A DNA stretch of 64,000 nt from Clostridia bacterium (GCA_016938675.1 JAFGUF010000014.1:6668-70667); one strand, 5' to 3'. Shown: positions 962 to 50,480, numbered from the stretch's first letter. Translations and numbers: made by a program. Notes: generated by a model not told the origin, from the sequence alone.

Positions 962-963
962 TT

Positions 964-8170: not shown

Positions 8171-8219
8171 AATATCCGTTCCCCCTAAAGTCTATATGCA
8201 TTATAATTATTGTCCAGCA

Positions 8220-8948: not shown

Positions 8949-8955
8949 TTGTACC

Positions 8956-32717: not shown

Positions 32718-33497
32718 CTAAGGCTGCATAACCCCTGAAAAGACCAGCCACGCCAGCACGGTCTTGGCGCACAGGCTAAGGACTATATACACCCTTTCAC
32801 CGTAAACATATTCTTTCCACTTGCCCACACTCTTGTACTGCAGCACCATGTTTATCGGGAAGAGATTGAAGAATACGAAGTACGAGCCGAAGATAGCGTA
32901 TACAAACCACGGTACCTTATCCAAATCCGAGTTTCCAAAAGCAAACATGAAAATAATTACCCACACTGCAAGCCCCGCTACGGAACCGAATATAAATGCT
33001 GACCAGTTTGTTTTCTCCGTATACTGGTTGATTCTTTCCATTAGAAGCCCGAAGAGGTTCATCGAAGCGTTGAGCACAAACAATGCTATAAGCAAGCCTA
33101 TGTCATATACGCCAAATAGCAGCGCAATTAGAACAATCATTACGGATGAGCTTATGGCGTATTCATACCATCTGTATGGGTTTATACCTTTTGATATGTT
33201 TTTATTATAATTGTCGTTGATTTTCGGCATTACAATAATGAAATGAAACAATGCCGAGAGAAACAGGAATATTGACACGCACGCACCGAAGGGCACATCA
33301 AACACCTTTTTGTTGTCCGTTACCAATGTCATCAGGTTTGTATCGAATGTCAGAAAGTTAGAAAACACTGGCAGCTTGAATGCCTTAATCTTATCAATAG
33401 TAAGCGCAAAGCTAAGCATCAGAGCTCCCTGAACGAAGTGAAGTATGCCCATAGTAAAGTTGAACTTCCTTAAGGATTTAAAGCTAATCTCCTTCAT
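32718..33497 (-). CDS. heliorhodopsin (7-TM retinal-binding protein, inverted topology)
   Basis: It aligns by eye along its whole length with recalled HeR-48C12. Matching blocks: LSALFHFI, RWYEYAISSSVMIVLIA (48C12 RWVEYSLSSSVMIVLIA), NASMNLFG, GERVYIVLSLCAKTVLAW (48C12 GERAYIVLSLVAKSALAW). Schiff-base Lys is K245 (32763..32765) and the counterion Glu is E112 (33162..33164). Confidence 0.85.
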   Translation of the reverse strand: MKEISFKSLRKFNFTMGILHFVQGALMLSFALTIDKIKAFKLPVFSNFLTFDTNLMTLVTDNKKVFDVPFGACVSIFLFLSALFHFIIVMPKINDNYNKNISKGINPYRWYEYAISSSVMIVLIALLFGVYDIGLLIALFVLNASMNLFGLLMERINQYTEKTNWSAFIFGSVAGLAVWVIIFMFAFGNSDLDKVPWFVYAIFGSYFVFFNLFPINMVLQYKSVGKWKEYVYGERVYIVLSLCAKTVLAWLVFSGVMQP

Positions 33498-33508: not shown

Positions 33509-34309
33509 TTATTGATTCGCTTTTCTTTTAAAAGTCTTGTTTGCTGCAATCATGGCCGCTGCAGCCAATGCCGCAAGCGCAGCCGACACAGCTATTATGA
33601 CGCCTGTGTATGCTCCGCCGAATCCTGAGGCGCTGGTATGCTTAATCAGAATTCCTACGTATGCCCATATAGCAACCAGCGCATACGAAACGTCTTTGAA
33701 CTTTATAATCACAGTACCGGTTATCAATAGCCCTACTATAACCACAGCTATCATCCAGATTGGCTGGGCAATAGAAAAACCGTTCCAGCCTATGCTTACT
33801 AGGTAGGTTGTTACGTTCGCAATTAATGCTATCGTTATCCAGCCATAGTATACGCTGAATGGAACTCGCACGAATGCCCTTTCCTTCTTTGTTAATGCTT
33901 TGCTGTTTATCCTGACATAGGCCAGGGTGAGAGATGCGAATATTGCCAGCATTAGAATTAATGATATGCCTATCTTCTGATAATGCCAGGCGAATATCCA
34001 CGCCGTGTTGGCAACTGAAGACAGTGCAAAGCACATTTTTATTCTATGTACGGCGTCAGTGCTGTGCCCTCCCTTTCCCTTGAATGCACCAAAGCTATAG
34101 AGCACAAATAGCAGAAGCAGCAGGTATATTACTCCCCATATTGAGAAGGTTATCCCTGCCGGCGCAAATAGATTCGGGTACGAATCCGATACTGTGCCTG
34201 TGCCTATGTTATTAATAGGCAGAATATTTGCAAGTGCGTTAACTGCGACCATTGCCGCAAAGGTAACTGCATTTACTATATATAATAATGTGTATTTTTT
34301 ATCTTTCAT
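33509..34309 (-). CDS. TspO/MBR-related multi-pass membrane protein (266 aa)
   Basis: ...NALANILPINNIGTGTVSDSYPNLFAPAGITFSIWGVIYLLLL... resembles long Firmicutes proteins annotated as TspO/tryptophan-rich sensory protein (from memory). There are 11 nt to the heliorhodopsin start. Confidence 0.5.
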   Translation of the reverse strand: MKDKKYTLLYIVNAVTFAAMVAVNALANILPINNIGTGTVSDSYPNLFAPAGITFSIWGVIYLLLLLFVLYSFGAFKGKGGHSTDAVHRIKMCFALSSVANTAWIFAWHYQKIGISLILMLAIFASLTLAYVRINSKALTKKERAFVRVPFSVYYGWITIALIANVTTYLVSIGWNGFSIAQPIWMIAVVIVGLLITGTVIIKFKDVSYALVAIWAYVGILIKHTSASGFGGAYTGVIIAVSAALAALAAAAMIAANKTFKRKANQ

Positions 34310-34505: not shown

Positions 34506-34535
34506 AAAAAAAGAAAGCCTCAAGTGAAGCTTTCC
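34506..34535 (-). terminator. intrinsic terminator ending the STAND operon
   Basis: On the minus strand the stem is ggaaagc...gctttc, followed by T7. Confidence 0.6.
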
Positions 34536-34563: not shown

Positions 34564-37320
34564 TTATTTTAAGTATTCGTCCAGGTCATTCCAGTCGTCA
34601 GCATCGCCTATTGCATAGTCATTTATGCCCTCGCTTACCAGTCCCCACTCCGCATCGCACTTGTCATAGGAGCTATTATCTATTGTCCTGTCTGCGATAA
34701 AAAATCTTATCATTGATTTGTATATAAGTACTGCGTTTTTATAATCCTGGCTCTTTACAAACAGCGGATAGGGAACCTCCGGATGCCATTTCTGAATTCT
34801 GTTCATCTGCATCAGCTGCATGTTCATATTATTTATGTTTGCGGCCGCCCGTTTTTTTGCTTCCTGTAGGGGCATCTTGTCTCCATAAAGCTGCTTGATC
34901 AGTTCGTTTATCACCTTGATTTGCTCTTCTTTTGTTTTACCTTTTAGGTTCTTTTTCAAGTATACATACGTATAGTTGTTGAATATTGTTTCTGCCGCCT
35001 CTTCATATTTTTTATAGAAATATTCAGAGAATTTATGGGTTAGAAGGAACACTGCAGCTTCGTTTGCATTGCCCAGATAGTGGCAGAATTCGTGGAACAA
35101 TACAGGAATTGTGCTGTAGCTGTCGCAGAATAGTTTCAGGTTTATGCCCACGCTATTGGGCAGGGTCTGGTCGACCACCTGATTATACCTGCTGGTTACC
35201 GGGCCGACTCCCTTTTCGCCGTTAAATGTCGTCCACATTACGTGGCTGTAAGGAGCCATTTTATAGAAGCCCTCTGTCTTTTCTTCGCTGATATCAATAA
35301 GCCTTAGCGGATACTCCCTGAGCAGGTACATAACACCGGGCAGCTCATTTTCCAGTATACGCACTGTTTTTTGAATGTCCCCGTAATTAAGCGACGGATT
35401 AGCGCATTTAAGTATTTCATCCAAAACGTTTGCAAACGTCAGGCTGTCGCAGGTGTCGTATATCCTGACTTCGAAGAATGATTTATTTTTGTCCCAGTCA
35501 ATCAATGTTGATCGCATTCTGATCAGGTCATCAAGCCTCTCTTTTATATCCTTATCATCCTGATTTTCCAGCATATAGGGAAGCAGCCCCACAACCAAGC
35601 ACTGGAGCATAAATTTTGAGAATGAATTTCCGTTTCTGCTGGCAATCAGCATGAAGACAAGTTCCATAGTGAAGTCAATGTTTTCACTGAGGCAGTATCC
35701 AATAAGCCCGCCTTGCATTTCCAAGGCTAATTCGTTTATTTCATTGATTTTTGCTATCTCCTCGCTGCTTTGCATATACAAAGGACTGTCGTATATGTTA
35801 CTCAGCAATGACCTGTATGTAGATTTGTACACCTCGTATTCCTCGTAGAGTTTTTTCATTCTTTCAGAAAGTTCATGGAATCGTTCGAGAACTTCTTTGA
35901 ACAAATCATCCTTAAGCATCAGCTTTCTGCCGGCTGCAAGCGTAGTGCAGCGCACCAATGCGCATATACTCCATCCGAAAACGGTTTCCTGGTCCTTTAT
36001 GCTCTTTTGTTCATCCGCGTTCTGATAATTACTTCTTGAAATAACTATATCTTTTAGTTTCGAGATTATCTCTTCGTTTTCGGTGGGGTTAAATACTAGT
36101 CCTATAAGGGCATCTACTATTTCAGTCTCATCCTTTGATGGCTCTTGCAGTTTGGCAAGGAATATTTCATCTCTTTTTTCTTTGCCTTTTGCGTCCAGCT
36201 TAGTCTTTCCGCTGTATATCCTATACTCGAAATCATTGTCCTGCCTGTCCTTGATTTTTCTTTCTCTTTCCTCGCGCCTTTCCTTCAGCTCAGCCATCTT
36301 CTTTCGCTCGGCCTCCTGACGCTCCTTTTTCTGTTTCTCAAGCTTTGCCAGTTCTGCCTGCCTTCTTACTTCCGCCTCCTTTTCCTCCCTCTTTTTTCTT
36401 TCGGCGTCAGTTTCTATCCTCTTTGCATTTTCCAGCTCCATTTTGCGGTCATCAATCTTCAGCCATGCCGCGTATACCATGATCAGAAGCACTATGCTCA
36501 CACCTATTAATATATAGTGCAGAAGGTAATCTTTTGAAGTCCTTTTTACCCTTAAGTTCTTCAGAACATACTTGTCGCTCGCATTTGAAAGAGCAGGAAT
36601 ATATTCACTTTCATTTTCCTCAATCTCTATAGACAATGTGTCAATATCTTCAAGCATGCTTTCAAGCAATTCAAGCTCCTCAGCGCTGCTTAATCCCAAT
36701 GCAGCGGTATATGCATCCGCCACGTATAACAAGTTGTTTACCAGCTGTGTTCCGAACTCTCCAGTTTTTGTGTCATCCGGCATGTTCCTGAAGCAAAGCA
36801 AAAGGTAAAATAGCGGATTATCATTGTCAACTACTGCTTTTTTAAGTACTAGGTCATCATTCAGCTGAACCCTTCCTTCCACATGGATAGTGTCAAGAAT
36901 TTCATGGCTGCCTTCAAAAACGCCGTTGGCTGTTAAATTCAGCGCAACCAGAGCAGGGTTTGTAACCTCGCATTCATACAGCACTTCATGTTCGTTTTCT
37001 TTGGATTGTTTAAATTCCAGATCGTAAACTGTTAAATAAGGATAATCCGTCTGCAGCGTTTTCAGCTCAAAATTCAAATCATCTGCAGCCACCACATTGC
37101 CTTTCACAAACAGCTGCGAATACTCATTCTGTATGTTCTGTTTCACACATGTGTTTACAATATACTGTACGCGCCTGATATCCCTAGTGTACGGCAGGGC
37201 AATGAATATTCCGGCAAATGCAGCCAGAGTCATAATAATCAGCAGAACAACTTTTATCTTGCTTCCTACTATGCGCCCCTTTGCCTTTTTTATCTCAATA
37301 TCCTTTTGTGCCTGATTCAT
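34564..37320 (-). CDS. 2-TM protein with an extracytoplasmic loop domain, E/R/K-rich helix and a cytoplasmic HExxH domain (918 aa), paralog B
   Basis: TM helices VVLLIIMTLAAFAGIFIAL and LLHYILIGVSIVLLIMVYAAWL. The charged tract is KKREEKEAEVRRQAELAKLEKQKKERQEAERKKMAELKERREERERKIKDRQ. HEFCH lies at 35080..35094. Confidence 0.8.
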   Translation of the reverse strand: MNQAQKDIEIKKAKGRIVGSKIKVVLLIIMTLAAFAGIFIALPYTRDIRRVQYIVNTCVKQNIQNEYSQLFVKGNVVAADDLNFELKTLQTDYPYLTVYDLEFKQSKENEHEVLYECEVTNPALVALNLTANGVFEGSHEILDTIHVEGRVQLNDDLVLKKAVVDNDNPLFYLLLCFRNMPDDTKTGEFGTQLVNNLLYVADAYTAALGLSSAEELELLESMLEDIDTLSIEIEENESEYIPALSNASDKYVLKNLRVKRTSKDYLLHYILIGVSIVLLIMVYAAWLKIDDRKMELENAKRIETDAERKKREEKEAEVRRQAELAKLEKQKKERQEAERKKMAELKERREERERKIKDRQDNDFEYRIYSGKTKLDAKGKEKRDEIFLAKLQEPSKDETEIVDALIGLVFNPTENEEIISKLKDIVISRSNYQNADEQKSIKDQETVFGWSICALVRCTTLAAGRKLMLKDDLFKEVLERFHELSERMKKLYEEYEVYKSTYRSLLSNIYDSPLYMQSSEEIAKINEINELALEMQGGLIGYCLSENIDFTMELVFMLIASRNGNSFSKFMLQCLVVGLLPYMLENQDDKDIKERLDDLIRMRSTLIDWDKNKSFFEVRIYDTCDSLTFANVLDEILKCANPSLNYGDIQKTVRILENELPGVMYLLREYPLRLIDISEEKTEGFYKMAPYSHVMWTTFNGEKGVGPVTSRYNQVVDQTLPNSVGINLKLFCDSYSTIPVLFHEFCHYLGNANEAAVFLLTHKFSEYFYKKYEEAAETIFNNYTYVYLKKNLKGKTKEEQIKVINELIKQLYGDKMPLQEAKKRAAANINNMNMQLMQMNRIQKWHPEVPYPLFVKSQDYKNAVLIYKSMIRFFIADRTIDNSSYDKCDAEWGLVSEGINDYAIGDADDWNDLDEYLK

Positions 37321-37382
37321 CTTTTCTCTCCTTTAAATCTCTTTAGCAATTATTTTATCTACCTATCATTTGATTATTGATG

Positions 37383-40214
37383 TTATTTTAAGTAGTAGTC
37401 TATATCACTCCAATCCCTATCATGAATTACATAATCGTTGATTCCCTCACTCACTAATTCCCATTCCGATTCGCATTTGTCAAAGTATTCTATATCAATA
37501 TCCTTGTCGGCAACGTGATACCTAACTATTGCTTTGTACATCAGCTCCGCGTTAGCTCTGTCCTCATATTTTGTCAGCAGCGGATAGGAAACTTCCGGAT
37601 GCCATCTCTGCATTCTGTTCATCTGTATCAGCTGCATGTTTATATTATTTATGTTAGCAGCCGCCAGTTTTTTTGCTTCCTCCAGGGGCATATTGCCTCC
37701 ATAAAGCTGCTTTATCAGGTCATTTATCACCTCGATCTGCTCATCCTTTGCTTTACCTTTCAGGTTCTTCTTCAAGTACACATAAGTGTAGTTGTTGAAC
37801 ATTGTTTCGGCCGCATCTGCATATTTTTTATAGAAATATTCAGAGAATTTATGGGTAAGCAGGAACACGGCGGCTTCATTGGTATTGCCCAGATAGTGGC
37901 AGAATTCATGAAACAGTACGGGTATTGTGCTGTAGCTGTCGCAGAACAATTTAAGGTTTATGCCTACGCTGTTTGGTAGAGTCTGGTCGACCACTTGGTT
38001 ATAGCGGCTGTTTACAGGCCCGACCTCCTTTTCGCCGTTAAATGTCGTCCACATTAAATGGCTAAAAGGTGCCATTTTATAGAAGCCCTCTGTTTTTTCT
38101 TCACTGTTATCTATAAGCCTTAAAGGATACTGCCGCAGCAGGAACATTACGCCCGGCAGCTCGGATTCTAATATGCGTACTGTTTTTTGAATGTCCCCGT
38201 AATTAAGCGATGGATTTGCGCACACGAGTATTTCCTTCAGAACATTTGCAAACGTATAGCTGTCGCATGTGTCGTAAACCCTTACTTCAAAGAATGACCT
38301 GTTTTCGGCCCAGTTGATAAGATTTGAGCGCATTTCTATCAAATCATCGACCTTAGCCTTCACCAGTTCGTTATCCTTGTTTTCCATCATATAAGGCAAG
38401 AGCCCGATTATAATGCATTGCATCATGAATCTAGAATATTCAAAATTTTTCCTGCTGGCTATCATAGTGAATATTATATCCAATGCGAACCCGGGGTCCT
38501 CGCTGATACAGTATGGCATCAGCCCGCCTTTCATCTCTTCAGACAGTGCGTTTAGCTGCTCTATCAGGTGTATTTCCCTAACGCTTTGGGTTTTTTCCTG
38601 CTGCTCCTTATTAAGGCTCATAATCAAGTTATAGTATTCACCCTCTCTGAATCGCTTTTCCTGCAGATATTCACGATAAAGCTTCGAACTTTTTTCAGCC
38701 AGTGCATTGTATCTGTCGAGAACAAGCTTGAAATGCTCAGTATTTAATTTTATTCCTTTGCCCGCTGCAATCTCGCAGCGAATCATCGCGCAAATTCCCC
38801 AGCCCAAAGCCGTCTCTGCATCTTTTATCTTTTCCATATTATCTTGGCGCCGATAGCTGCTGTTTCTTGTAACAATGTCCAGCAAATAATCTCTAATTAC
38901 CCTGTTGTCCGTCGGGTTGAATACTAGGCCTATCAATACATCAAGCACCGCTTTGTCATCCTCAGCTGCTTCCTTAAGCCTCTCTAGGAATATTGCGTCA
39001 CGTTTCTCTTTGCCTTCTTCATCCAGTACTACCTTGCCGCTGTATATCTGATACTCGAATTCGTTGTCCTGTCTTTCCCTTATTCGTCTTTCCCTTTCTT
39101 CGCGCTTTGCCTTCTGCTCCTCCATCTTTTTGCGTTCTTTTTCCTGCTGCTCCCACTTTATTTTCTCCAATCTTTCCAGTTCAGCTCTTTCCTTGGCCTG
39201 TCTTTCCCTTTCAGCCTCCAGCCTTCTTTCTTCTCTTTCTCTCTCCAGCTTTATTCGCTTTGCTTCCCGCTCTCTGGCTTCTCTCTGCGTTTTTTCAGCG
39301 TCTGTTTCTATCTGCCTGCATTCTTCCAGGTCATCCTCGCAGCTATTTTTGTGCTTTCTTGCCAAAAATATAAGAATGAAGAAAAATACGCTGGCTGCAA
39401 TACTTAAATAAAAATATACGTAATCCTTATGTTCCTTTTCTAGCTGCAGGTTTTTAAGTATGTACTTTTTGCTTTCATCCGAGTTGTTGGCTATATATGT
39501 ACTTCCCTTTGATTCTATCTGTATTGACAGGGTGTCTAAATCAGACATCATATTAGCCACTAGTTCCACCTGCTCTTCAGCACTTAACCCCAAAGCAAAC
39601 GAATATTCCTCCGCAACATGCAAAACATTATATATCAGCTGCTCCTGTCCATTGCCTGTCTTTGTGTCGGCAGGCATATTCCTGAAGCACAGCAATAGGT
39701 AAAAAAGCGGGTCGTCATTATCTACTATAACTTTTTTCTTAAGCAGCGATTTCTCCAGCTTGACTCTTCCCTGAATTTTTACCTTATCCAGCACCTTATC
39801 GCTGTTTTGATATGTTCCATTTATGGTCAGGTTTAAGGCCACCAATGTAGGATTGGTCACTTTACATTCGTAGATAAGTTCATTTTCATCATCCTCTGAC
39901 TCTTTAAGTTCAAGGTCATAGACTGAAAAGTACGGATAATCAGTTTGACTTTTAATTAATGAGAAATTCAAATCATCCGCTGCTGCAAGATTATTTTTTA
40001 TATAGGAATCATCATATACTCTTTGAATGTTTTGCTTTATCCCCTCATTAACAAGATAGCGAACCCTTCTAATATCCGCCGTATAGGGGAGTGCAAAATA
40101 TATAGCTGCTGCGGAAGCTGCAGTCATAATTATGAAAAAAACTATCCAAAACTTTGCCCAGCCTATTCGCACAAGGTTATTTTTTATTTTCTCATCCTTT
40201 TGTGCCTGATTCAT
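37383..40214 (-). CDS. 2-TM protein with an extracytoplasmic loop domain, E/R/K-rich helix and a cytoplasmic HExxH domain (943 aa), paralog A
   Basis: TM1 spans residues 21-42 and TM2 spans 266-285. The E/R/K tract spans residues 296-382 (39069..39329). HEFCH lies at 37896..37910. The N-terminus MNQAQKD and the RBS region are identical to paralog B. Confidence 0.8.
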   Translation of the reverse strand: MNQAQKDEKIKNNLVRIGWAKFWIVFFIIMTAASAAAIYFALPYTADIRRVRYLVNEGIKQNIQRVYDDSYIKNNLAAADDLNFSLIKSQTDYPYFSVYDLELKESEDDENELIYECKVTNPTLVALNLTINGTYQNSDKVLDKVKIQGRVKLEKSLLKKKVIVDNDDPLFYLLLCFRNMPADTKTGNGQEQLIYNVLHVAEEYSFALGLSAEEQVELVANMMSDLDTLSIQIESKGSTYIANNSDESKKYILKNLQLEKEHKDYVYFYLSIAASVFFFILIFLARKHKNSCEDDLEECRQIETDAEKTQREAREREAKRIKLEREREERRLEAERERQAKERAELERLEKIKWEQQEKERKKMEEQKAKREERERRIRERQDNEFEYQIYSGKVVLDEEGKEKRDAIFLERLKEAAEDDKAVLDVLIGLVFNPTDNRVIRDYLLDIVTRNSSYRRQDNMEKIKDAETALGWGICAMIRCEIAAGKGIKLNTEHFKLVLDRYNALAEKSSKLYREYLQEKRFREGEYYNLIMSLNKEQQEKTQSVREIHLIEQLNALSEEMKGGLMPYCISEDPGFALDIIFTMIASRKNFEYSRFMMQCIIIGLLPYMMENKDNELVKAKVDDLIEMRSNLINWAENRSFFEVRVYDTCDSYTFANVLKEILVCANPSLNYGDIQKTVRILESELPGVMFLLRQYPLRLIDNSEEKTEGFYKMAPFSHLMWTTFNGEKEVGPVNSRYNQVVDQTLPNSVGINLKLFCDSYSTIPVLFHEFCHYLGNTNEAAVFLLTHKFSEYFYKKYADAAETMFNNYTYVYLKKNLKGKAKDEQIEVINDLIKQLYGGNMPLEEAKKLAAANINNINMQLIQMNRMQRWHPEVSYPLLTKYEDRANAELMYKAIVRYHVADKDIDIEYFDKCESEWELVSEGINDYVIHDRDWSDIDYYLK

Positions 40215-40243
40215 CTTTTCTCTCCTTTATGCCTCTTCTTTAT

Positions 40244-40753
40244 TTATATATCTTCTTTGTTTTTTGCTCCGCTCAGCTTCTGCCTTAAGCAGTCCAGCAG
40301 CAGGTGAAAGTCATATAGTTTTTTCAGCTCCTGCTCTATGTGTGCATCCAGCACTTTTTTTATATCTTCTGAAAACTCATCGGCGACTCTGTAAAAATTA
40401 TTGCTGATAGCCCCCTCATCAAGAAATACAAAGCTGAACCATTCGGTCATCGGATTATCCGTTAGGTATTTTTCCGCCGCCTCCGCATCGCCGTTTTTGC
40501 AGATATCTGAAAATACTTCCAGGTTTTTGACTGCCTGCTTTTTGTCATCGTCATACTCGTCAAATATTGATAGGGTATCCCTTGCAATGATGCTTTTGCG
40601 GGGCGCAGCTATGGCCTTGTCGAGAAACTGTGACTGCATTTCGCACGTAAGCCCTCCTCGTCCAGCATCCCAAATAATATCGCCCTGGTCAACATTGAGA
40701 ATCAGTTCATCCAGTCCAAGTGCCTTTCTTTTTACTTTTAAGTATTCGCTCAT
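40244..40753 (-). CDS. hypothetical cytoplasmic protein (169 aa), operon partner
   Basis: Clean acidic ORF with 38-nt and 29-nt gaps to its neighbours. I recognise no motif. Confidence 0.6.
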   Translation of the reverse strand: MSEYLKVKRKALGLDELILNVDQGDIIWDAGRGGLTCEMQSQFLDKAIAAPRKSIIARDTLSIFDEYDDDKKQAVKNLEVFSDICKNGDAEAAEKYLTDNPMTEWFSFVFLDEGAISNNFYRVADEFSEDIKKVLDAHIEQELKKLYDFHLLLDCLRQKLSGAKNKEDI

Positions 40754-40791
40754 GTTCTTCTCCTTTTTTGTTTTCTAGTGCTGTTGTTTTT

Positions 40792-43647
40792 TTATAGTGA
40801 TGCGAGTTTTTTAATTACATCCGGCCTGCCAACTATTTGCGCCATCTCAAGCAGCTCTTCATATTTATCCATGTAATCATTCCCCAGCTCTTTGCTTGCC
40901 GCAACTTCAAAGTATTTAGCAGCTAGTATATCATCCATTTCCTTAAGCTCTGTTGCAAGCAACGCATATGCCATCGCGTGCTCCAAAGCTTTGTCATGCT
41001 TTTCAATGTGCATATAAATAATCGTCAGGTTTTTGTGCGCTCCCATCAGGCTGCGCTTGTTACCTGTTTTCAGGCATATATCAATCTTTTTCTTGTACTT
41101 TGATATGGCAGCGGAGTTGAGCCCCTGCCTATACAGGATGCTGCCCTGATTTCCCAGGCAAATCTGCAATGCGTTCTGGTCATTGATTTTTTGAAGCAGC
41201 TTTTCCTCGTCATATAGGTACTTAATAGCGGTCTGCAGGTCGCCTTCCTTCAGCTCAACCTGGCTTAATGAATCATAAGCGGCCGCTGCGCCCTTGACAC
41301 TGCCTATCTGCAGGCAAAGCTTTCTTTGTTTATCAAACGTGTTTTTGGCGGCCTTTATTTCATTCAAATTATTAAATTGCAGATATCCGATGCTTCCAAG
41401 CAATTTTTGCTGTTCTTCAGCGTAATTATTCTCCTCGGCCAGCGAGAGCGCCCTCTGATAATAGTATAAAGCCTTTTCAACATTATTAGTCTCATAGTAC
41501 AAAAGCCCCAGATTGCCGAGGGACTTTACAAATCCCTTTGTAAAATTATTTTGCTCGCATATTTCACTCTGGCGCATATATATATAGGTAGCATGCTTGT
41601 ATATGCATTGCCTGTGCTTTATCTTGGCAAGTGAGCCCAGCGCATCCTGATAGGACATCCAGTCATCAGCTGCCTTGCATTTTTTCATCACTGCCTTAAA
41701 CAGCGCAAATGCCTCCTTCGGATACCTGTAGTCAAATAGAATCTGGGCAGCCGCGCTAAGTTGAGCGGCAGTGTATTCTGCGGGCGATTCAAGCAAAGGC
41801 TTGAAGTTCTCTGTCATTTCATATGCCTGCTCGCTAAGCGCCTTCCAGTACTCCCGTGCCTTCCAATGGTTACGGTTATATATATCCATAAATGCATCCA
41901 TATCGCTCATCAGGGCATTCAGGACGCCGTACTGCCTATATCTGACGCATACAGAAGGCAGAATCCTTGTCCTTTCATCTCCCTGTATTTCAATCAGGCA
42001 ATTTATCAGTGAAAGGGCGTAGGCAAGCGTATCATCCAATTTGAAGTACTGCTCCACAGCCTTTGATATCTCATCATTTTTGAAAAGCCATGCATTAACT
42101 CTTAAATAGCATAATTCGCATACAGCCGGAAAAACCAAAGCCCACGTATAGGCATTTGGAGTGCCAAGCAAAGCAATCAATGTGCTCTCCTTAAGCCCGT
42201 CGCCAGAAACATATAGATATATCAGCGCTTTTTTAAGCAGTTCAAAGTTCTGCCTGTCCATATTGTCTTCCAGCCTGCTTAGATATTGCATAATAATCCC
42301 GCTGACACTTTCGCAGGACAGCAGCAATTCAATCCTGCTATTCAGCTCCTCATATACGCCGAACTTCCTTAGCTCATCCAGCATTGAAACGAGATAAAAA
42401 GGAAGGCGCGATTTCTTCGCCGCGGCAATCTTATCCCTGCTTTTTTCATCCAGTTTTTTGCCGTAGCTCAGGAGGTAATTCTGCGCTATATACTTTATAT
42501 CCTCCTCGTCAGGGCTTGCCACATTCTGCACCTTAAAGGCTTTCTTTTCTATCTTCTGTAGGGTGGATGAATCCCTTGTTGAAATAATTAATTTTATGTT
42601 TTCCGGAAGCGATGTGGGTATCCACGCGAAGCTCGTGATGCCCTTGGTGTTCTCAAGCAGCTCCAGTCCGTCTATTATTATATTCAATTGTTCCGCTTTT
42701 TTTGCTGCTTCATTTAAGTGCGCCGGAACGGAATTTATTATGTCCAGCGGTTCTTTATTGAAATCAATCTCTATCTGATATCTGCTCTCCAGCCACATGA
42801 GCAGCCGCAGAACCATGTTATAGAGATCTGCTGAGTCATCTGAAGCGCCGCAGAAATGAAAAAAAGTGTTTTCAGGCTGGTAATTTATTAAATAGTATGC
42901 AAGCAATGACGATTTGCCGCTGCCTGCGCCGCCCGTAAGAAGCAGTATTTTTTTTGCACTGCCTCCTATGTATTCATCTATCAGCCCAGATGCTGACTTA
43001 TAGTCTGTATATTCTGCCGCGGCGTGGCGCGCATAGCTCAGGTGAAGCTCGCCTTCCCCCGTTTCAGCCATGGAAAAAAGCCCCGAAATAACATTCTTAA
43101 TATCTTCAAAGACATACCGTGCGAGTTCTGAAGGCGTTTTATATTGCTTTATTTCTACGCCGGACTTTACAATCCGTTCTTTTAGCGCCAGCTGGTTTTT
43201 ATCCTTTGCTTCCTTGCTTTCTGCGCATCTTTCATATATTCTGCAATGGGGGTTGTCTTTCATGCCGAGGTATAGCTCCATCTCGGTAATTGACCTGCCT
43301 TTTTTAGAAAGCAGCCAGGGGTATTTTTCAGCTGCGATTTCGGAAATAGCTTCGGGTATCCATCCGTATCTTTCCCCCAGAATACCTATAAAAAACGGGG
43401 CGCATCTCGAAACCTCATCAAGGCAAATCTCCACTGTTTTGTCGCTTTGAGCCTCCTCCTCTGTTATGCCCCAGCGAAGGTCAACCGGTATAAAATCCAG
43501 ATCATAAAGCCTGCAAAACTGCGTGACTGCCGGAAAAATCAGCGTCAGAGCCTCTCTTTCCTCCTGCATATCCCGGAAAGTGGATGACACAAATAAACGG
43601 ACTGCTTTGTCGGCATCATATTTTCTTTTCTCAAGTTTTGGCTCCAT
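40792..43647 (-). CDS. STAND NTPase: DUF4062-like N-terminal domain + P-loop + TPR array (951 aa)
   Basis: The N-terminus reads VRLFVSSTFRDMQEEREAL...VDLRWGI...GILGERYGWIP (DUF4062-like, about 43348..43599). Walker A LLLTGGAGSGKS is at 42910..42933. Walker B candidate is LNIIIDGLE. The C-terminal about 350 aa are TPR-like (ALYYYQRALSLAEE...). Confidence 0.8.
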   Translation of the reverse strand: MEPKLEKRKYDADKAVRLFVSSTFRDMQEEREALTLIFPAVTQFCRLYDLDFIPVDLRWGITEEEAQSDKTVEICLDEVSRCAPFFIGILGERYGWIPEAISEIAAEKYPWLLSKKGRSITEMELYLGMKDNPHCRIYERCAESKEAKDKNQLALKERIVKSGVEIKQYKTPSELARYVFEDIKNVISGLFSMAETGEGELHLSYARHAAAEYTDYKSASGLIDEYIGGSAKKILLLTGGAGSGKSSLLAYYLINYQPENTFFHFCGASDDSADLYNMVLRLLMWLESRYQIEIDFNKEPLDIINSVPAHLNEAAKKAEQLNIIIDGLELLENTKGITSFAWIPTSLPENIKLIISTRDSSTLQKIEKKAFKVQNVASPDEEDIKYIAQNYLLSYGKKLDEKSRDKIAAAKKSRLPFYLVSMLDELRKFGVYEELNSRIELLLSCESVSGIIMQYLSRLEDNMDRQNFELLKKALIYLYVSGDGLKESTLIALLGTPNAYTWALVFPAVCELCYLRVNAWLFKNDEISKAVEQYFKLDDTLAYALSLINCLIEIQGDERTRILPSVCVRYRQYGVLNALMSDMDAFMDIYNRNHWKAREYWKALSEQAYEMTENFKPLLESPAEYTAAQLSAAAQILFDYRYPKEAFALFKAVMKKCKAADDWMSYQDALGSLAKIKHRQCIYKHATYIYMRQSEICEQNNFTKGFVKSLGNLGLLYYETNNVEKALYYYQRALSLAEENNYAEEQQKLLGSIGYLQFNNLNEIKAAKNTFDKQRKLCLQIGSVKGAAAAYDSLSQVELKEGDLQTAIKYLYDEEKLLQKINDQNALQICLGNQGSILYRQGLNSAAISKYKKKIDICLKTGNKRSLMGAHKNLTIIYMHIEKHDKALEHAMAYALLATELKEMDDILAAKYFEVAASKELGNDYMDKYEELLEMAQIVGRPDVIKKLASL

Positions 43648-43906
43648 ATAGGCTCCTGCGTGTTGAACAGCGGGTGAAAAATGATAAAATCAAAAATAAA
43701 CTCATTATGTGAAAAAAGGCGCATATTACGCTAATTATTCATTGCCTTGTGCGTGATGCAATATCGCCAATGTCAAATAGAATTATTATTTGTATTATAT
43801 CAATATTTAGTAAATAAAACAATAATCAACCAGTGATAAATCTGCGAATTTTCGTATATTTTTTTGGTTTTTTTAGGGCTCAATTATGCTGCTGATACTT
43901 GTAAAT

Positions 43907-43953: not shown

Positions 43954-45306
43954 TTATGAAATCGCACCAAAACTTACAAGCAGCGTCCTTACGGTCGGAT
44001 CCTCAACATAAACGAATATTTCATAATTTCCTTCATAGAGCATGGTGTTTACAGACTTGGAGGCATTAAGCACCTCAATAGCTATATCAGCTGAGCCTGA
44101 CGAGCCTTCCGGCTGGAACAGTGCATTCAGCGCTGCCTGCTCAAATCCTAAAATAGCGTTGTACATTTCATCCTCTCCGCTGAATCCAGCGCCAGTAACC
44201 ATCACAAATATGACCTCATCGTTGGAATCGACCTCCAGCATCAGCATTAGGTCGCCATAAAAATACAGAGTCTGGTTTTCAACGCCCGTTCCTATGAAAT
44301 CACTTTTTTCAATTGTTCCAACACCGGCAAGAATACTGTTGCCGGGGAATTGCTTGCGGCTTTCATCCAAATATTTATTGAACTCGCTGAGGTAGGAATC
44401 CAGAGAAAGCTTCTCCGGCTTTCCGTATGCAGGCTGCGGATTTGAAGCTGCGCCTGGTTCCTCGCCGACATCGATTACTGTTCTGCTTTCCGGCATATCA
44501 CCCGGATAAAAAACTATCGCATCCGGCGAAGCGGAAGAATTAAAGTAGTAGGTTACCTCTGTGGCGTTCATGTCCGCGCTAATGCAGGTATATTCCGTGC
44601 CGCCTGAAATGATGGCGCACTCAACAGGAATCTTCCACTCCATATCGCGCATCGGTATCATATCAAATCCTGAGCCTGAAACTATAACTGTTGTATTGCC
44701 CTGGCTGTCTGTCCCTAAGGCGTATGAATTGACTACGTAATTATTCCCGTATGCACTCACTCTGAGCGGCAGCGCTGACTGTGGCGCAGGCTCAGCGGTC
44801 GGCTCAGCAACCGGCTCCTCTGTAGCCGCCTCTTCTATCTTCTCACTCACTTCTTCTTTTGCTGCTTCTGTCTCAACGAACTCAATTTCTACAGTAGCAG
44901 TGGCGGCAAATGCGCGCTCCTCATATTTGCCTGAGGCTTCTTCCACATTTATTTCGAAAACGAATCCATCGCCTGTGCCTTTGGCATAGTAGCTGTCTTT
45001 TTCGTCCTCGCTCTCGTCCACTTTCAAATCGCCGCTGTCGAAAATATCCTCATAGAAGTCTGCGACATCGTCTACATCGTCTTCTGTTCCGTATGAAAGC
45101 TCAATAGTGCCATCATCTTCCTCATACGCGTATACTATAGCATCGTCATAAATAGGGAGTGAATCGTCAGGGTAATCTCTGGCGACTCTTACACCGTCAA
45201 CATATTCCTCCGGCAGCGGATCAATCAGCGAACTAATTGCGCTGCATCCTGTAAACAGAGCCAGCAGGCAAATCATCACTGCAATTAAAAATTTTTTGCT
45301 TTTCAT
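43954..45306 (-). CDS. lipoprotein (450 aa) with the shared acidic N-terminal module
   Basis: Lipobox LFTGC. The module DPLPEEYVDGVRVARDYPDDSLPIYDDAIVY...FYEDIF... is shared with 45380..47380. Confidence 0.75.
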   Translation of the reverse strand: MKSKKFLIAVMICLLALFTGCSAISSLIDPLPEEYVDGVRVARDYPDDSLPIYDDAIVYAYEEDDGTIELSYGTEDDVDDVADFYEDIFDSGDLKVDESEDEKDSYYAKGTGDGFVFEINVEEASGKYEERAFAATATVEIEFVETEAAKEEVSEKIEEAATEEPVAEPTAEPAPQSALPLRVSAYGNNYVVNSYALGTDSQGNTTVIVSGSGFDMIPMRDMEWKIPVECAIISGGTEYTCISADMNATEVTYYFNSSASPDAIVFYPGDMPESRTVIDVGEEPGAASNPQPAYGKPEKLSLDSYLSEFNKYLDESRKQFPGNSILAGVGTIEKSDFIGTGVENQTLYFYGDLMLMLEVDSNDEVIFVMVTGAGFSGEDEMYNAILGFEQAALNALFQPEGSSGSADIAIEVLNASKSVNTMLYEGNYEIFVYVEDPTVRTLLVSFGAIS

Positions 45307-45379: not shown

Positions 45380-47380
45380 CTAGTCAACTATAATGTCAAA
45401 CCTATCTGCAACCTGCTGCCTGAAGTCTGCAATCGCCTGCTCCCTTGTTTTGTTCCCTGCTGTATATTCACGCACCTCTTCCAGCCACAGGGCATTGATT
45501 ACTTCATCATATTGAGTCAGGTTTTGCGCCTTTGCCGCCTTTGCTGCGGGAAGAAAAATCTCAAACATATCCTGTCCGCCCAGAAATTCCAGCGTACCGT
45601 CAGAAGCGGCCATAATTTTACCTGACGCCACGGAATCTTTGGGGCCATCGTCTTCATCCATTGTGCCGGTTGCAAGCATATACTGCAGCCCTGTTTCAGA
45701 GCTGTCAAGAGTAATCCATTCTATTATCTGTGCAATTGCTTCTTTCATCTTGCTGTCTTTATTTGCAAGCGCCCATGTTCCGCCCCAGTGGTAGTCCGTA
45801 GGAGGCACACATACAGCCCAGTCCCCAAATGTATCTCCTGCACTTTGACAAAGCACAAAGTTGACAAACCATGCAGGCCCAAAGAAGCCGAACACCTCAT
45901 TTTCGCCTGTTTCATTCATATCAGCGAACCAATCTTCGCCCCATTTTTGTGTGTTATTATAGTATCCGTTGTCTTCAAGCTGCCTCGATATATCAAGAAA
46001 GGCCTCTCTTTGCGGATCAATATAAAGTCTTCCGTCTGCTATCCATCCCTTCTCAGCGCTGTTTTCAATTACAGTCCATATGTCTTCGCTGCTGGATACT
46101 ATGCAATAGCCCTTATCCTTAAGGTCTGCTGCCGCTTCTAGGAATTTATCCCAGCCCGGCCCTACAATATCCTTTATTTTATCAGGGTCATCTGTTCCCC
46201 ATGTATCAATTGCTATGGATCGCCTATAGATGAATGCGCCGCCTGTAGACTGGTAACAAAGCGCCGCCACTTCTCCCTCCTTATTTGTGCCTATCTCGAA
46301 AATATAAGGCGCAATTTCCGCTTCCTCGGCCAGCGTATGCACGTCTATTCCCAAATCTTCATAGCTGGCGGCAAAGCCGCTTGCATCACCCTGTGTATAT
46401 TTATATACGAAGACAGCCTCAGCGAAATATATGTCCGGCGCGTTTGCCCCGCCTAGTGCCAGCGCCTGATCCAGAGCAGCCGTATAGGAACTGCTTGTAT
46501 TTTCAATAACTGTCGTCTTGATATCATATCCAAAATCCGGGTGCATCTCCATGAATTTCTCAATAATCCCGACTGCCTCGTCTGAAAAACTCCAGATGTT
46601 TATGACCCTCGGATAATTATAAAAGAGCATGTTGTCTATTGTTGTCTTTTCAAAATATGTTTCAGAGCCATCTATTGTTACTGCCATTATGTCCTGTCCG
46701 TCTATAGATTCAAACGAAACCTTAGACTTGGTTTCGACACCATCCACTACGTAAAAAAACGAGTAATCATCCGTAAAGACTATTTCGATACCCTCAGCCT
46801 TTTTTTCGAATCCATCGTATATGTCCATCTTGCTGCCGGAAAACTGGATTGCCTTTCCTTCCAGCCTGTAATCATCCGATAGTGTCCCGCTCATGCCGCA
46901 GGCCATCCACAGCCCCTGCATATTCTTTATGGTCTCTTCTCCCGGCGCATACATCACAATATTTACTTCAACAACTGTTTTGAAGGCGCGGGCCTCATAT
47001 CCGCCGGATGCCTCTTCAATAATTACTTCAAATGTGTAACCTGTGCCTTTGCCGGACGCGATGTATTGTATCCCGTCGTCTTTTATTCCATCCAGTGCCA
47101 ATTTGCCGGACTCAAATATCTCTTCATAGAAATCTATAACATCATCTATGCTGTCGCCGGTTCCATAAAAAAGCGATATACTATCCTCTGAAACCTCCGA
47201 GTCATAGACAACAGCGTCATCATAAATAGCAAGTTCATCATCAGGGTATTCCCTGCTGTATCTTATTCCGTCTACATACTCATCAGGAAGCGGATCCAGT
47301 ATGTCAGCTGTCATTTTGCAGCCGCATAAATAAATTGAGATAGCTATAGCACAAATCAAAACCAGCATATTCTTCTTCAT
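45380..47380 (-). CDS. lipoprotein (666 aa): shared N-terminal module fused to an ABC-type solute-binding-protein-like domain
   Basis: Lipobox YLCGC. The N-module is DPLPDEYVDGIRYSREYPDDELAIYDDAVVY...FYEEIF. The C-terminal half is SBP family-1-like (...PDIYFAE..., ...GFFGPAWF...). Confidence 0.7.
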   Translation of the reverse strand: MKKNMLVLICAIAISIYLCGCKMTADILDPLPDEYVDGIRYSREYPDDELAIYDDAVVYDSEVSEDSISLFYGTGDSIDDVIDFYEEIFESGKLALDGIKDDGIQYIASGKGTGYTFEVIIEEASGGYEARAFKTVVEVNIVMYAPGEETIKNMQGLWMACGMSGTLSDDYRLEGKAIQFSGSKMDIYDGFEKKAEGIEIVFTDDYSFFYVVDGVETKSKVSFESIDGQDIMAVTIDGSETYFEKTTIDNMLFYNYPRVINIWSFSDEAVGIIEKFMEMHPDFGYDIKTTVIENTSSSYTAALDQALALGGANAPDIYFAEAVFVYKYTQGDASGFAASYEDLGIDVHTLAEEAEIAPYIFEIGTNKEGEVAALCYQSTGGAFIYRRSIAIDTWGTDDPDKIKDIVGPGWDKFLEAAADLKDKGYCIVSSSEDIWTVIENSAEKGWIADGRLYIDPQREAFLDISRQLEDNGYYNNTQKWGEDWFADMNETGENEVFGFFGPAWFVNFVLCQSAGDTFGDWAVCVPPTDYHWGGTWALANKDSKMKEAIAQIIEWITLDSSETGLQYMLATGTMDEDDGPKDSVASGKIMAASDGTLEFLGGQDMFEIFLPAAKAAKAQNLTQYDEVINALWLEEVREYTAGNKTREQAIADFRQQVADRFDIIVD

Positions 47381-47999: not shown

Positions 48000-50480
48000 A
48001 TGGGAGAAAACCAACCGACCAACCGTGACAGCTACAGGATGCTGCTTGGTATCTTTATCGGAATCGCAGCCGCGGCCGTTATTTTTTTTGTCATTTTTTT
48101 AGCCACAAGAAAAGCACCGGAGGAAAACCCTTTCAGCAAATATCTGCTGTCCGGCCGCTTCGATGAAGCTTACTCGGAATTTGACTCTGCAAACAAAGAC
48201 TACTATCAGCCCTTTGATGAATACCTGCAGAGCATAACAGATAATTATAATAACTCATCAGCAACATATGAAGACTCATCACATATTTTAATGAAGCTCA
48301 AAAGCAGCGGCTTTCCGGCAGAGGCTATAGATGACTCAATCGCTAATCTTGATTCATTGCGCGACTCCAAAGATGCATATATCACTGCGGAGGCTCTATT
48401 CAGCCAAAATAAATATGAAGAAGCTAAAGAAAGCTATCTGAAAGTGTCAGAATCCGACACAAACTACGCCGCCGCCATACAAAAAATAGCAGATATTGAC
48501 GCTATGCTGCAAACCAGCATGGAGAATTATGCAATTGCAGAAGAGCTATATTTAAATAATGACACGGCAGCAGCCTATGAGCAGTACCAGCTGATAGTAA
48601 GCAATGGCGTAAACACGGCAGAAGCACAAAAAAAGATTGCATCCATAGATGACCTAAACCAAGCCTGGGATGCTGAATTCGATAGCGGCAGCTATGATAA
48701 ATGCACATATCCCAATGCCGCAGCCGCAAAAGACGGCATACTGTATCTGCCTTATTCATCAGATAGCCTGCACGCCATAATAAAATATAATACTTTAGGC
48801 GGCACAGCAGAAGCACTGGTTATTTCTAATATAAAAGGAAGCCTTATTATAAGGGGAATAAATATAGTCGGCGACTACATATACTTCATAGCAGGCGAGA
48901 ACGTGGGCACCGGAAAAGGGTATGCCAACCCATACAGCATATACCGGATGAAAACTGACGGCTCCGAGCTGGCGCTGGCAGCATCCGGAAATTACACAGA
49001 CTTAATAGCCTACAAAGACGGCTTCTACGCTGCCTCCTATTCAGACGGGCTTATAAAAACGGATAGAAACCTGAAGCCAATAGAAATGATATCTGAAAGC
49101 ACACCTGCACAGATGCAGCTGGTTAATGATAAGCTTTACTACACTGTAGGAGAATATATACCGGGCGACCCGGCCAGATATATCCCCGTAGACAGGGTGA
49201 ACGCCCAGTACGTATATGACGGCAGCAGCATAGAAAAGATTAAAGAAGGTACGCTTCTGCAATTCGGCATATATGACGAATCCGAACTGTACTCCGAGCA
49301 GGTATATGAATTCTACGAGAAGATATTTATAGCAAACGAGTCTGACGGCACCAGCCGTCTGATTGCATACGACGACATAAAGAATGTTTTCGGCTTGGTT
49401 GGCGGCAATGCACTCTACACTATCGAAACCTTAAGCGGCAAAGATACATACTATGTATATAGTTTGGAAAACCGCATTTCCAGCGACCGCACATATTATG
49501 TCCGTACTGATGCAAGAGGAGTGGAGGGCATCTACTACGAGGGCGAAATGGTCGTCTTCTCAACTGCTGACGGATTTGTAATCACAGACAGCAGCCTGAA
49601 TTATGTAAATGAAATTGATTTTTCTGCGCTTGACATAAACTCTATGGAAGCAGTCACAGATATATCATTTGAAAACAGCCCTGAATATACCGATGAAGAG
49701 GTTGTGATAGTTGAGGATGAATACTGGCATTACTCCAACAGCACATATTACATCACCATTGAAAGCAGGTATTTAGGCGATATTGACACGAATATATTCA
49801 TAGCCGATATCAGAACAACTGACCCTGCCGGAGTGCGTGTGGACAGCCCCACAGACAACGACCATATCCCGTTTATCCGCAAGGACCCGCTCAATCTTGC
49901 GCGCCAGTTCAGCGCTATTTTGGCATGCAACGGCGATTTCTTCGATGAGGCATCCAACGAGTGGACGGGGATATCCATCAGGGAAGGAATAGTATACAAA
50001 AAGCAACTGGTACAGGACATGATGGCCATATATCCTGACGGCAGCCTCGTTTGCTATACAGCCGAGGACAACATAAGATATGAAGACCTTTTATATGACG
50101 GCGTTCGAGATACGCTATCTTTCGGGCCAATGCTTATTAATCACAGCGATTACGGCAAAAACATCTACTCTCATTTCCTCGCAGGGGCAAATCCGCGGTG
50201 CTCGCTAGGAATGATTGAACCGGGGCACTATGTGCTCATTGTAGTTGACGGTCGCCAGCCCGGCAGCACCGGCATAACCTTAAAAAGGCTTGCTGATTTG
50301 TTTCTGGAAAAAGGCTGCTCAGTTGCATACAACCTGGACGGCGGACAATCCGCTACTATGATGTTTATGGGCGAGTATGTAAATACACATGATAATGATT
50401 ATTCCTGCAAAACATTCCGCATCATCGGCGAAATTGTATTTTTCGGCACATCTGATTTAGTTCCCGGCGAGAATAATTAG
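48000..50480 (+). CDS. membrane-anchored TPR-like / DUF5050-like beta-propeller / phosphodiester glycosidase (DUF2233-like) protein (826 aa)
   Basis: N-terminal TM helix. YIYFIAGE...PYSIYRMKTDGSEL has propeller blades. The C-terminus is ...ILACNGDFFD...GITLKRLADLFLEKGCSVAYNLDGGQSATMMF. Confidence 0.7.
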   Translation: MGENQPTNRDSYRMLLGIFIGIAAAAVIFFVIFLATRKAPEENPFSKYLLSGRFDEAYSEFDSANKDYYQPFDEYLQSITDNYNNSSATYEDSSHILMKLKSSGFPAEAIDDSIANLDSLRDSKDAYITAEALFSQNKYEEAKESYLKVSESDTNYAAAIQKIADIDAMLQTSMENYAIAEELYLNNDTAAAYEQYQLIVSNGVNTAEAQKKIASIDDLNQAWDAEFDSGSYDKCTYPNAAAAKDGILYLPYSSDSLHAIIKYNTLGGTAEALVISNIKGSLIIRGINIVGDYIYFIAGENVGTGKGYANPYSIYRMKTDGSELALAASGNYTDLIAYKDGFYAASYSDGLIKTDRNLKPIEMISESTPAQMQLVNDKLYYTVGEYIPGDPARYIPVDRVNAQYVYDGSSIEKIKEGTLLQFGIYDESELYSEQVYEFYEKIFIANESDGTSRLIAYDDIKNVFGLVGGNALYTIETLSGKDTYYVYSLENRISSDRTYYVRTDARGVEGIYYEGEMVVFSTADGFVITDSSLNYVNEIDFSALDINSMEAVTDISFENSPEYTDEEVVIVEDEYWHYSNSTYYITIESRYLGDIDTNIFIADIRTTDPAGVRVDSPTDNDHIPFIRKDPLNLARQFSAILACNGDFFDEASNEWTGISIREGIVYKKQLVQDMMAIYPDGSLVCYTAEDNIRYEDLLYDGVRDTLSFGPMLINHSDYGKNIYSHFLAGANPRCSLGMIEPGHYVLIVVDGRQPGSTGITLKRLADLFLEKGCSVAYNLDGGQSATMMFMGEYVNTHDNDYSCKTFRIIGEIVFFGTSDLVPGENN

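Follow-up and report, generated by a model that had tools for sequence, protein, structure and literature searches.

The DUF4062 domain has recently been described as a TIR-like NADase with a catalytic glutamate and with a role in Swarozyc and Evangelion, two defence systems of a single gene each; it is an active NADase in human TEP1 and stands beside a NACHT module in human NWD1, NWD2, TEP1 and NPHP3 (two 2026 preprints, bioRxiv 10.64898/2026.05.01.722283 and 10.64898/2026.06.25.731849). Here we describe a locus in a 64,000-nucleotide (nt) stretch of DNA from a Clostridia bacterium (GCA_016938675.1 JAFGUF010000014.1:6668-70667; hereafter the window, meaning this whole stretch), in which a DUF4062 domain forms the N-terminus of a 951-amino-acid (aa) NLR-like STAND protein (A) encoded together with a small partner protein (B) and a HExxH protein with two transmembrane (TM) helices (C), the latter in two tandem copies (C1 and C2). 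The locus is one representative of a three-component NLR-like module that is conserved and has spread horizontally; the components of this module are co-inherited and diverge together. It represents a multi-gene NLR-like system in which a recently characterised domain is combined with three new domain families, namely B, the loop domain of C, and the helical plus HExxH domain of C. The four genes are:

40792-43647, minus strand: gene A (g1), open reading frame (ORF) of 951 aa, DUF4062 (TIR-like NADase)-NACHT-TPR STAND protein
40244-40753, minus strand: gene B (g2), ORF of 169 aa, small partner protein of a new family
37383-40214, minus strand: gene C1 (g3), ORF of 943 aa, two-TM HExxH protein
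34564-37320, minus strand: gene C2 (g4), ORF of 918 aa, tandem paralog of C1 with the same layout

With Swarozyc and Evangelion, A shares the DUF4062 domain (E = 9.4e-15), in which aromatic motifs and an acidic S-x-T-E-x-E region are conserved, and NAD+ hydrolysis on activation would be expected; however, each of these systems is a single gene coding for DUF4062 and a short auxiliary domain, whereas A carries NACHT and TPR regions within its 951 aa and has two obligate neighbour genes. As in the bNACHT and Avs proteins, an N-terminal effector-type domain is combined with a P-loop STAND module and a C-terminal helical-repeat sensor, and activation driven by oligomerisation would be expected. 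In contrast to these systems, which are usually single genes, the trio consists of three obligate genes, includes a membrane partner and was not seen in defence islands. The DUF4062-NACHT-TPR order of A is the same as that of NPHP3 (NPHP3_N and NPHP3_hel are weak matches), and its DUF4062-NACHT order is found in NWD1, NWD2 and TEP1, although A belongs to a bacterial lineage. We know of no eukaryotic counterpart of B or C.

In Thoeris a TIR-type enzyme is likewise encoded with separate partner proteins, and Thoeris variants with partners that have two TM helices are known, but Pfam finds no SLOG, Macro or SIR2 domain in B or C, and the TIR-like domain of the trio sits in a STAND protein. The trio also resembles BlaR1/MecR1 together with ImmA/IrrE, in mode only (an outer sensing domain, a cytoplasmic HExxH enzyme and a small cytoplasmic partner): there is no sequence or significant structural similarity of these proteins to C, topology and domain order differ, and the output of the trio would be an NLR-like NADase instead of a repressor. 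A likeness to RyDEP (PMC13232231) is provided by the RyR-domain proteins that adjoin the trio in about eight related loci, the window itself having no RyR gene.

A search of the running text of the papers in one literature collection found no description of the A+B+C combination, and no system-specific model of PADLOC-DB v2 matched any of the four proteins, in agreement with an earlier note on this DNA, which had recognised no known defence system in the gene combination. DUF4062-NACHT proteins are common to bacteria and humans (NPHP3, NWD1/2, TEP1), the NADase nature of the DUF4062 domain being known only since 2026, and the trio is a distinct monophyletic branch that pairs such an NLR-like NADase with two proteins that have no match in Pfam, NCBIfam, PADLOC or the PDB. 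It offers a way to test how STAND/TIR-like switches can be regulated by separately encoded partners, and it may show that bacterial NLR-like immunity can be linked with the cell surface or with regulated proteolysis.

A, B and C form a conserved and co-inherited trio

A word-index search with full-length C1 retrieved only four proteins, the two of the window and those of a Joint Genome Institute (JGI) contig (L001), probably because the E/R/K-rich tract of C swamped the candidates. Among 1.84 billion representatives, an exhaustive HMMER search with the C-terminal domain of C yielded 163 clusters (50% identity), of which 62 had E < 1e-30; the C family is therefore real but rare. DNA was obtained for 15 loci from GTDB species genomes and 15 from metagenomes, and further contigs were collected via STAND and B proteins. 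The ORFs of these loci were searched with profiles of A, B and the C-terminal domain of C1, giving a census of 30 distinct loci.

Complete, adjacent and co-oriented A, B and C genes were found in 22 of the 30 loci. Three further loci (L014, L024 and L026) are cut by a contig end with one partner visible, one (L016) is a degraded remnant, and two (L027 and L031) were not evaluable; C is truly alone in two loci (L029, with its duplicate L032, and L033). Hence at least one partner is adjacent in 26 of the 30 loci, that is, in 26 of the 28 evaluable ones, and the same gene order was seen in one more contig for which a gene table was used. The order is A-B-C, except in the Tannerella-type loci, where it is C-A-B, and several of the A/B and B/C junctions overlap by 4-17 nt. 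Start/stop overlaps of 4-8 nt, together with short gaps, suggest that translation of the genes is coupled. According to the record titles, the hosts are Lachnospiraceae, Oscillospiraceae, Eubacteriales, Defluviitaleaceae and Anaerovoracaceae among the Bacillota, and Tannerella (Bacteroidota) and Leptolinea/Anaerolineaceae (Chloroflexota) outside this phylum, so that the synteny for which the earlier note had asked extends over three phyla. Its four-gene operon is present as such in the window, but the conserved unit comprises three genes, the fourth being a lineage-specific tandem duplicate of the third.

A, B and the C domain are strongly correlated in their pairwise distances (r = 0.91, 0.95 and 0.90). 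When 135 DUF4062-NACHT-TPR proteins were compared over their N-terminal 650 aa in a neighbour-joining tree, all 18 trio-linked STANDs fell into a single clade that contained no other protein, and two relatives of A outside this clade are solo genes. A hidden Markov model score was also tried as a means of separating trio-linked from solo STANDs and was not discriminating, as TPR repeats inflate the scores. The JGI contig carries the same locus in a relative with 82% nucleotide identity, and there, too, a heliorhodopsin gene adjoins the operon.

It is this adjacency and joint divergence that bring the idea of mere neighbours (A as a self-sufficient single-gene defence protein, like Swarozyc and Evangelion and like those DUF4062-NACHT-TPR proteins that are solo genes, with B and C as passengers) close to refutation, given co-orientation in 26 of 28 evaluable loci over several phyla amid unrelated flanks, overlapping reading frames, correlated divergence (r >= 0.90), the monophyly of the trio-linked STANDs and the finding that every B context looked up adjoins A and C.

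Component A: a STAND protein with a TIR-like domain

The earlier note had read an N-terminal DUF4062-like domain, a Walker A motif and a long TPR array from the first gene, and all three were found at the following positions:

43276-43599, minus strand: DUF4062/TIR-like domain of A (aa 17-124), Pfam match with conserved motifs
42388-42972, minus strand: NACHT-type P-loop module of A (about aa 226-420), Walker motifs and models below cut-off
42910-42933, minus strand: Walker A motif GGAGSGKS of A (aa 239-246), read from the sequence
42661-42681, minus strand: Walker B motif IIIDGLE of A (aa 323-329), read from the sequence
40933-41730, minus strand: TPR array of A (about aa 640-905), Pfam TPR_12, TPR_7 and TPR_1 and the generic TPR model of PADLOC

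The DUF4062 domain (PF13271) matched Pfam with E = 9.4e-15 (55 bits against a cut-off of 24.7; aa 17-124). The two preprints of 2026, which identify it as a TIR-like NADase, have given this domain a function. Three TPR models exceeded their cut-offs (TPR_12, 38.5 against 30.1 bits; TPR_7, 29.9 against 27.9; TPR_1, 27.9 against 27.8), while NACHT (19.2 against 26.7) and NPHP3_N (24.6 against 24.8) stayed below theirs; AAA_22, near its threshold, and NPHP3_hel were further weak matches. Most of the relatives of A listed have PF05729 (NACHT) matches on record, several of which are marked as faint or weak. With PADLOC, only the generic TPR model matched A, and no system-specific model did. Neither A nor B has hydrophobic segments or a signal-like N-terminus.

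More than 2200 homologs of A have the DUF4062, NACHT and TPR regions, and the identity of A to this general family is about 26-29%. Mean pairwise identity is highest in the DUF4062 domain of A (59%), compared with 35% in the NACHT module and 34% in the TPR array. Among 15 trio-linked STANDs the motifs SSTF.D..ER, DLRWG.T, G[EN]RYGW.P and S.TE.E (aa 119-126) are conserved; S.TE.E is found in at least 90% of these proteins, E121 and E123 do not vary in any of the rows displayed, and both Walker motifs are conserved across the trio-linked STANDs. Judged by its domains and motifs, A is a STAND switch protein, whose DUF4062 domain groups with the TIR-like NADase family and whose NADase activity is predicted. 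A search of plasmids with the DUF4062 domain of A for Eva01, which could have placed the catalytic glutamate, returned only three unrelated DUF4062 matches.

Component B: a small protein of a new family

The second gene codes for a 169-aa protein that the earlier note could assign to no named family, and Pfam, NCBIfam and PADLOC indeed returned no significant match. The family comprises only 20 clusters among 5.8 billion proteins, all of about 165 aa and named 'hypothetical protein' at most; the genomic context was looked up for 2 of the 20 clusters in addition to the fetched loci, and in every one B adjoins A and C. There was no credible relative of B in Pfam (best E = 9e-4, in 3 of 19 members) or in the PDB (best E = 0.045), and B is a soluble protein of about 165 aa that constitutes a new family. 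Its alignments contain an invariant N-terminal motif, Y-x6-A-x-G-L (aa 4-14; nt 40712-40744, minus strand), which is followed by a poorly conserved stretch and then by a better conserved body with the motifs EY..D and EW[LF]S.[VI]FL[DE]. B was also considered as a homotypic adaptor that shares a domain with A or C, and this was rejected, as hhalign gave probabilities below 1%.

Component C: a two-TM protein with an invariant HExxH motif

C1 and C2, of 943 and 918 aa, are paralogs as described in the earlier note. They are 59% identical overall, with 82-94% identity in the catalytic core and 30-66% in the remainder, and their parts and motifs are the following:

C1, aa 22-43: TM1
C1, aa 44-265: loop domain
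C1, aa 266-287: TM2
C1, aa 296-384: E/R/K-rich tract
C1, aa 385-633: helical domain
C1, aa 634-930: HExxH core
37860-37910, minus strand: predicted metal site of C1, H769-E770-x-x-H773 ... N779-E780-A781, invariant in the alignments
35080-35094, minus strand: HEFCH of C2 (aa 743-747), read from the sequence

In both proteins two hydrophobic segments (approximately aa 22-43 and 266-287) lie about 220 residues apart, as the note had it, and this layout of TM1, a loop of about 200 aa and TM2 was seen in most members of the C family. By iterative search, the loop is one divergent domain family. The E/R/K-rich tract, given in the note as approximately 85 residues, was found in both proteins (89 aa in C1 and, 22 residues shorter, 67 aa in C2; E+K+R 63-65%, no Pro or Gly) and is confined to the window's own clade; the length of the linker after TM2 ranges from about 100 to 800 residues. 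Tandem copies of the loop domain precede TM2 in some relatives, with three in P0133 (1444 aa) and two in L024 (787-3969). In two trios (L013 and L017), C is without TM helices and has a C-terminal DUF6273 instead.

The HEFCH motif noted earlier lies in the large domain, beginning at aa 769 of C1 and aa 743 of C2. The HExxH and NE residues (H769, E770, H773, N779, E780 and A781 of C1) are invariant in alignments of 27 core sequences and of 59 sequences, and HExxH is present in 69 of the 70 family members listed. AlphaFold modelled aa 385-943 of C1 (559 aa) as a helical domain followed by the core with a predicted local distance difference test score (pLDDT) of 88.9 and a predicted template modelling score of 0.88, and the core by itself (aa 634-943, 310 aa) with a pLDDT of 90.6; the last approximately 550 residues of C are conserved. 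The core model contains four strands, the HExxH helix (helix 130-141), a five-residue turn and a next helix starting with N-E-A. The NExxSD motif of thermolysin-type gluzincins supplies a likeness to this N-E-A. As in gluzincins, the modelled HExxH helix comes after a beta-sheet, and the Glu of the invariant N-E on the next helix, 6 residues past the second His, would be a candidate third metal ligand; unlike in gluzincins, the spacing from the second His to this Glu is only 6 residues (5 before N-E) and not at least 18, and C has no Pfam, PDB or Foldseek match. The term zincin-like, as used in the earlier note, is matched by an invariant HExxH located on a helix, and the structure search did not confirm a zincin fold. 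On the basis of the motif and the modelled local strand-helix-helix arrangement, it is plausible that C is a zincin-like metallopeptidase. Both proteins were without a significant match in Pfam, NCBIfam and PADLOC, and neither these databases nor the PDB place them in a housekeeping family.

The predicted topology of C has the loop outside and the HExxH domain inside the cell. We place the latter in the cytoplasm because hydrophobic segments and signal-like N-termini are lacking in A and B, because the TM-less variants of C still sit in trios, and because the C-terminal domain contains nine cysteines and TM2 is followed by a basic stretch.

Tandem C paralogs occur in at least three lineages (the window together with L001, L006 and L022). 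In the pairs measured (window and L006), the core is 78-94% identical, compared with 30-66% for the loop, linker and helical parts. On L001 (1064-3872) the C1 ortholog is frameshifted near residue 571-577, by a sequencing error or by decay of the paralog, and the C2 ortholog is intact.

RyR-domain proteins adjoin related trios

Large proteins with an RyR domain (PF02026) and differing N-termini adjoin the trio in about eight distinct loci, where their side and strand relative to it vary:

L002, 7756-10392: RyR-domain protein
L007, 3361-5106, minus strand: RyR-domain protein
L009, 2178-4460: RyR-domain protein
L015, 301-2589: RyR-domain protein
L016, 2244-4049: RyR-domain protein
L024, 4311-7106: RyR-domain protein, a fusion of HD, RelA/SpoT and RyR
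L010, 1-579: RyR-domain protein
L026, 1-513: RyR-domain protein

No RyR gene was found in the window. Phage RyR-domain proteins bind or cleave 2'/3' cyclic ADP-ribose (2'/3'cADPR), according to a 2026 preprint (PMC13232231). The RyR neighbours therefore link the trio to ADP-ribose-type nucleotide chemistry, which suggests that the TIR-like output of A lies at the downstream end. Between the HExxH and RyR proteins of L002 (6455-7153), and also in L003 and L004, there is a 232-aa stand-alone FGE-sulfatase-domain protein; FGE-sulfatase-like domains have been reported as sensor domains of defence STANDs (PMC13581612).

The flanks of the trio differ from locus to locus. In the window they comprise heliorhodopsin and a membrane protein of no assigned family, a two-component pair (histidine kinase and AraC-type response regulator), two lipoproteins and proteins with NAGPA domains; in other loci LepA/YchF or, in L037, amylase, PEPCK, MnmA, UvrB and UvrA were found. 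Rarity, spread over phyla and changing flanks fit an accessory, horizontally moved module.

A model for the trio and its alternatives

We consider it likely that the trio is a functional three-component conflict module of the NLR type. That it also works in the direction C to B to A is a tentative proposal, the chances of which we put a little short of even. In this model C would be a receptor-type metallohydrolase, most probably a peptidase, whose outer domain registers an event at the envelope such as phage attack or envelope damage, and whose cytoplasmic HExxH domain would then process B. The TPR array of A would act as a guard that reads the state of its guardee B, A would oligomerise through its NACHT module, and its TIR-like domain, once switched on, would consume NAD+ and/or make ADP-ribose-type products, resulting in growth arrest or abortive infection. 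Two C paralogs with a near-identical core and divergence elsewhere would allow a wider range of inputs.

C is placed upstream of A because its topology is receptor-like and because it has repeatedly been duplicated, with divergence everywhere except in the catalytic core. At 34% identity against 35%, the TPR array of A does not exceed the NACHT module in variability, which fits a conserved endogenous ligand. The order C to B to A is further proposed because the N-terminus of B is invariant and peptide-like, and because the ADPR-binding RyR neighbours sit at the presumed downstream end. The earlier note had proposed a nucleotide-switch sensor coupled to membrane-spanning zincin-like proteins; the co-inheritance of the trio and the invariant HExxH support this reading, and no fold match to zincins was found.

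Taken to its full extent, the model describes an 'outside-in' innate immunity, in which duplicated transmembrane receptor-metalloproteases would sense the envelope and process a small guardee, to which a NACHT-TPR NADase would respond, its TIR-like domain then collapsing NAD+ or emitting ADPR-type signals. We regard this extended version as doubtful. If true, a STAND/NLR protein would be wired to a surface receptor instead of sensing phage proteins directly in the cytoplasm, and B and C would be the founding members of new families.

Several observations weigh against the model. Which way the signal runs, that C cleaves B and that the TPR array binds it are pure inference on our part, and the TM-less C proteins in two trios (L013 and L017) mean that sensing outside the cytoplasm is not universal. 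For the topology of C, the positive-inside charge count was ambiguous. As to its enzymatic nature, a comparison of 27 C cores with Pfam at E <= 10 gave nothing consistent, profile searches of the PDB with three different C alignments gave no match, and the best Foldseek matches in the PDB had E = 0.18 for the 559-aa model (helical-repeat noise) and E = 1.4 for the 310-aa core, none of them being a peptidase; against the viral library BFVD the best match of the 310-aa core was an IrrE-like zincin with a non-significant E = 1.3. In A, the Glu of GERYGW is replaced by Asn in 4 of 15 STANDs linked to a trio, and it is by its description (Eva01 E87-Y88, acidic-SYT region; KpSwz E97) that the catalytic Glu of the preprints would fit the S-x-T-E-x-E of A. 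Regarding a role in defence, all relatives of the trio are from metagenomes or metagenome-assembled genomes, and the C domain was not found in plasmid, phage and viral-contig collections. No defence genes were seen around the trio in the window flanks and the sampled loci, the flanks being housekeeping genes, and PADLOC gave no match for ten neighbours from six other loci, a limited sample.

The alternative that survives best, although we hold it to be unlikely, is the inverse wiring, in which A would sense a phage or foreign protein through its TPR array and C would be the executioner, in a Thoeris- or apoptosome-like manner: A would act on C via B as an adaptor or via a TIR-made ADPR-type nucleotide, and the HExxH enzyme would degrade essential proteins or damage the membrane. 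An N-terminal effector, NACHT and a repeat sensor make up the standard layout of phage-sensing STANDs, most sensors of which are TPR-like (PMC13581612), and TIR enzymes with separate effectors are known, Thoeris being an example (PMC13232231). The two TM helices of C, the catalytic core as its most conserved part and the tight co-inheritance of the trio would suit an executioner as well. Yet an executioner has no obvious need for a conserved outer domain of 200 aa or for paralogs conserved only in their core, and A already has an effector-type domain of its own, which is its best conserved part. Moreover, Pfam finds no nucleotide-sensor domain in C, and profile comparison finds no adaptor domain common to B and either A or C.

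Against the conflict module as such stands the possibility, which we consider improbable, of a non-immune module for envelope signalling or regulated proteolysis, where C would sense a cue like BlaR1 or the anti-sigma-factor proteases and, together with B and the STAND ATPase, would control a physiological response. The receptor-like topology of C, the genes flanking the trio in the window (heliorhodopsin, two-component system, lipoproteins) and elsewhere (LepA/YchF, or amylase, PEPCK, MnmA, UvrB and UvrA), the lack of a PADLOC match among neighbours and the absence of the family from plasmids, phages and viral contigs all agree with such a role. However, the trio is rare, patchy over three phyla and differently flanked in each genome, as is typical of horizontally moved conflict genes; it includes no DNA-binding or sigma-type output protein, and the family of its output domain is an NAD+-depleting defence effector. 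Neighbours of the RyR and RelA/SpoT type likewise point to nucleotide-based conflict systems, and in the sister locus L001 C1 is frameshifted.

A very unlikely variant concerns the chemistry of C: the HExxH domain could be a metal-dependent nucleotide hydrolase that turns over, for instance, an ADPR-type product and would serve as a terminator or converter of the signal. HExxH also occurs in hydrolases other than peptidases, no peptidase family or fold was matched to the domain, and its neighbours are a TIR-like enzyme and, in other loci, ADPR-binding RyR proteins. On the other hand, the modelled strand-helix(HExxH)-helix(NE) arrangement with N-E-A resembles gluzincin peptidases, and a membrane-tethered scaffold of 550 aa with a receptor-like loop would be unexpected for a simple nucleotide hydrolase.

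Operon signals and flanking genes of the window

The four minus-strand genes are co-directional and separated by 38, 29 and 62 nt, and both the gene coordinates and these gaps are exactly as given in the earlier note. So are the AT-rich spacer of about 300 nt upstream of gene A (measured as 306 nt with 30% G+C, and preceded by the hairpin and T-run of the upstream gene) and the good intrinsic terminator at the other end. The signals are:

43794-43802, minus strand: extended -10 element TGATATAAT (promoter-like), which precedes the start of gene A by about 147 nt, read from the sequence
34506-34535, minus strand: intrinsic terminator closing the operon, RNA fold and T-run

In the terminator, a 12-bp hairpin (-17.6 kcal/mol, z = -3.6; none of 200 shuffled sequences folds as well) precedes a T-run; a simple terminator scan did not list this hairpin. 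Overall, the number of sites in the promoter scan did not exceed that expected by chance, and TGATATAAT is a putative element read off the DNA. An Rfam scan of the operon and its leader found nothing near threshold.

Downstream of the operon are a heliorhodopsin gene (32718-33497, minus strand; Pfam E = 7e-100) and a gene for a 266-aa multi-pass membrane protein without a Pfam match (33509-34309, minus strand), a pair that also follows the operon in L001. The operon is directly preceded by two genes, which (43954-45306 and 45380-47380, both minus strand) encode lipoprotein-like proteins with a Cys-containing signal peptide and no Pfam match, which share an N-terminal domain of about 130 aa (…DPLPEEYVDG[VI]R…YPDD.L.IYDDA.VY…). 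Beyond these, two genes coding for proteins of 826 and 805 aa with a C-terminal NAGPA (phosphodiester glycosidase) domain (48000-50480, plus strand, and 52210-54627, minus strand) lie around a gene for a leucine-rich repeat protein (50670-52178, minus strand). Positions 1-9000 of the window have a G+C content of 27-34% and contain two polymorphic-toxin immunity genes of the Imm11 family (3778-4338 and 6293-6859, both minus strand) among ORFs without a Pfam match; this low-GC block looks like a toxin/immunity cassette island. It is followed by a gene coding for an M48 peptidase (9558-10325, plus strand).

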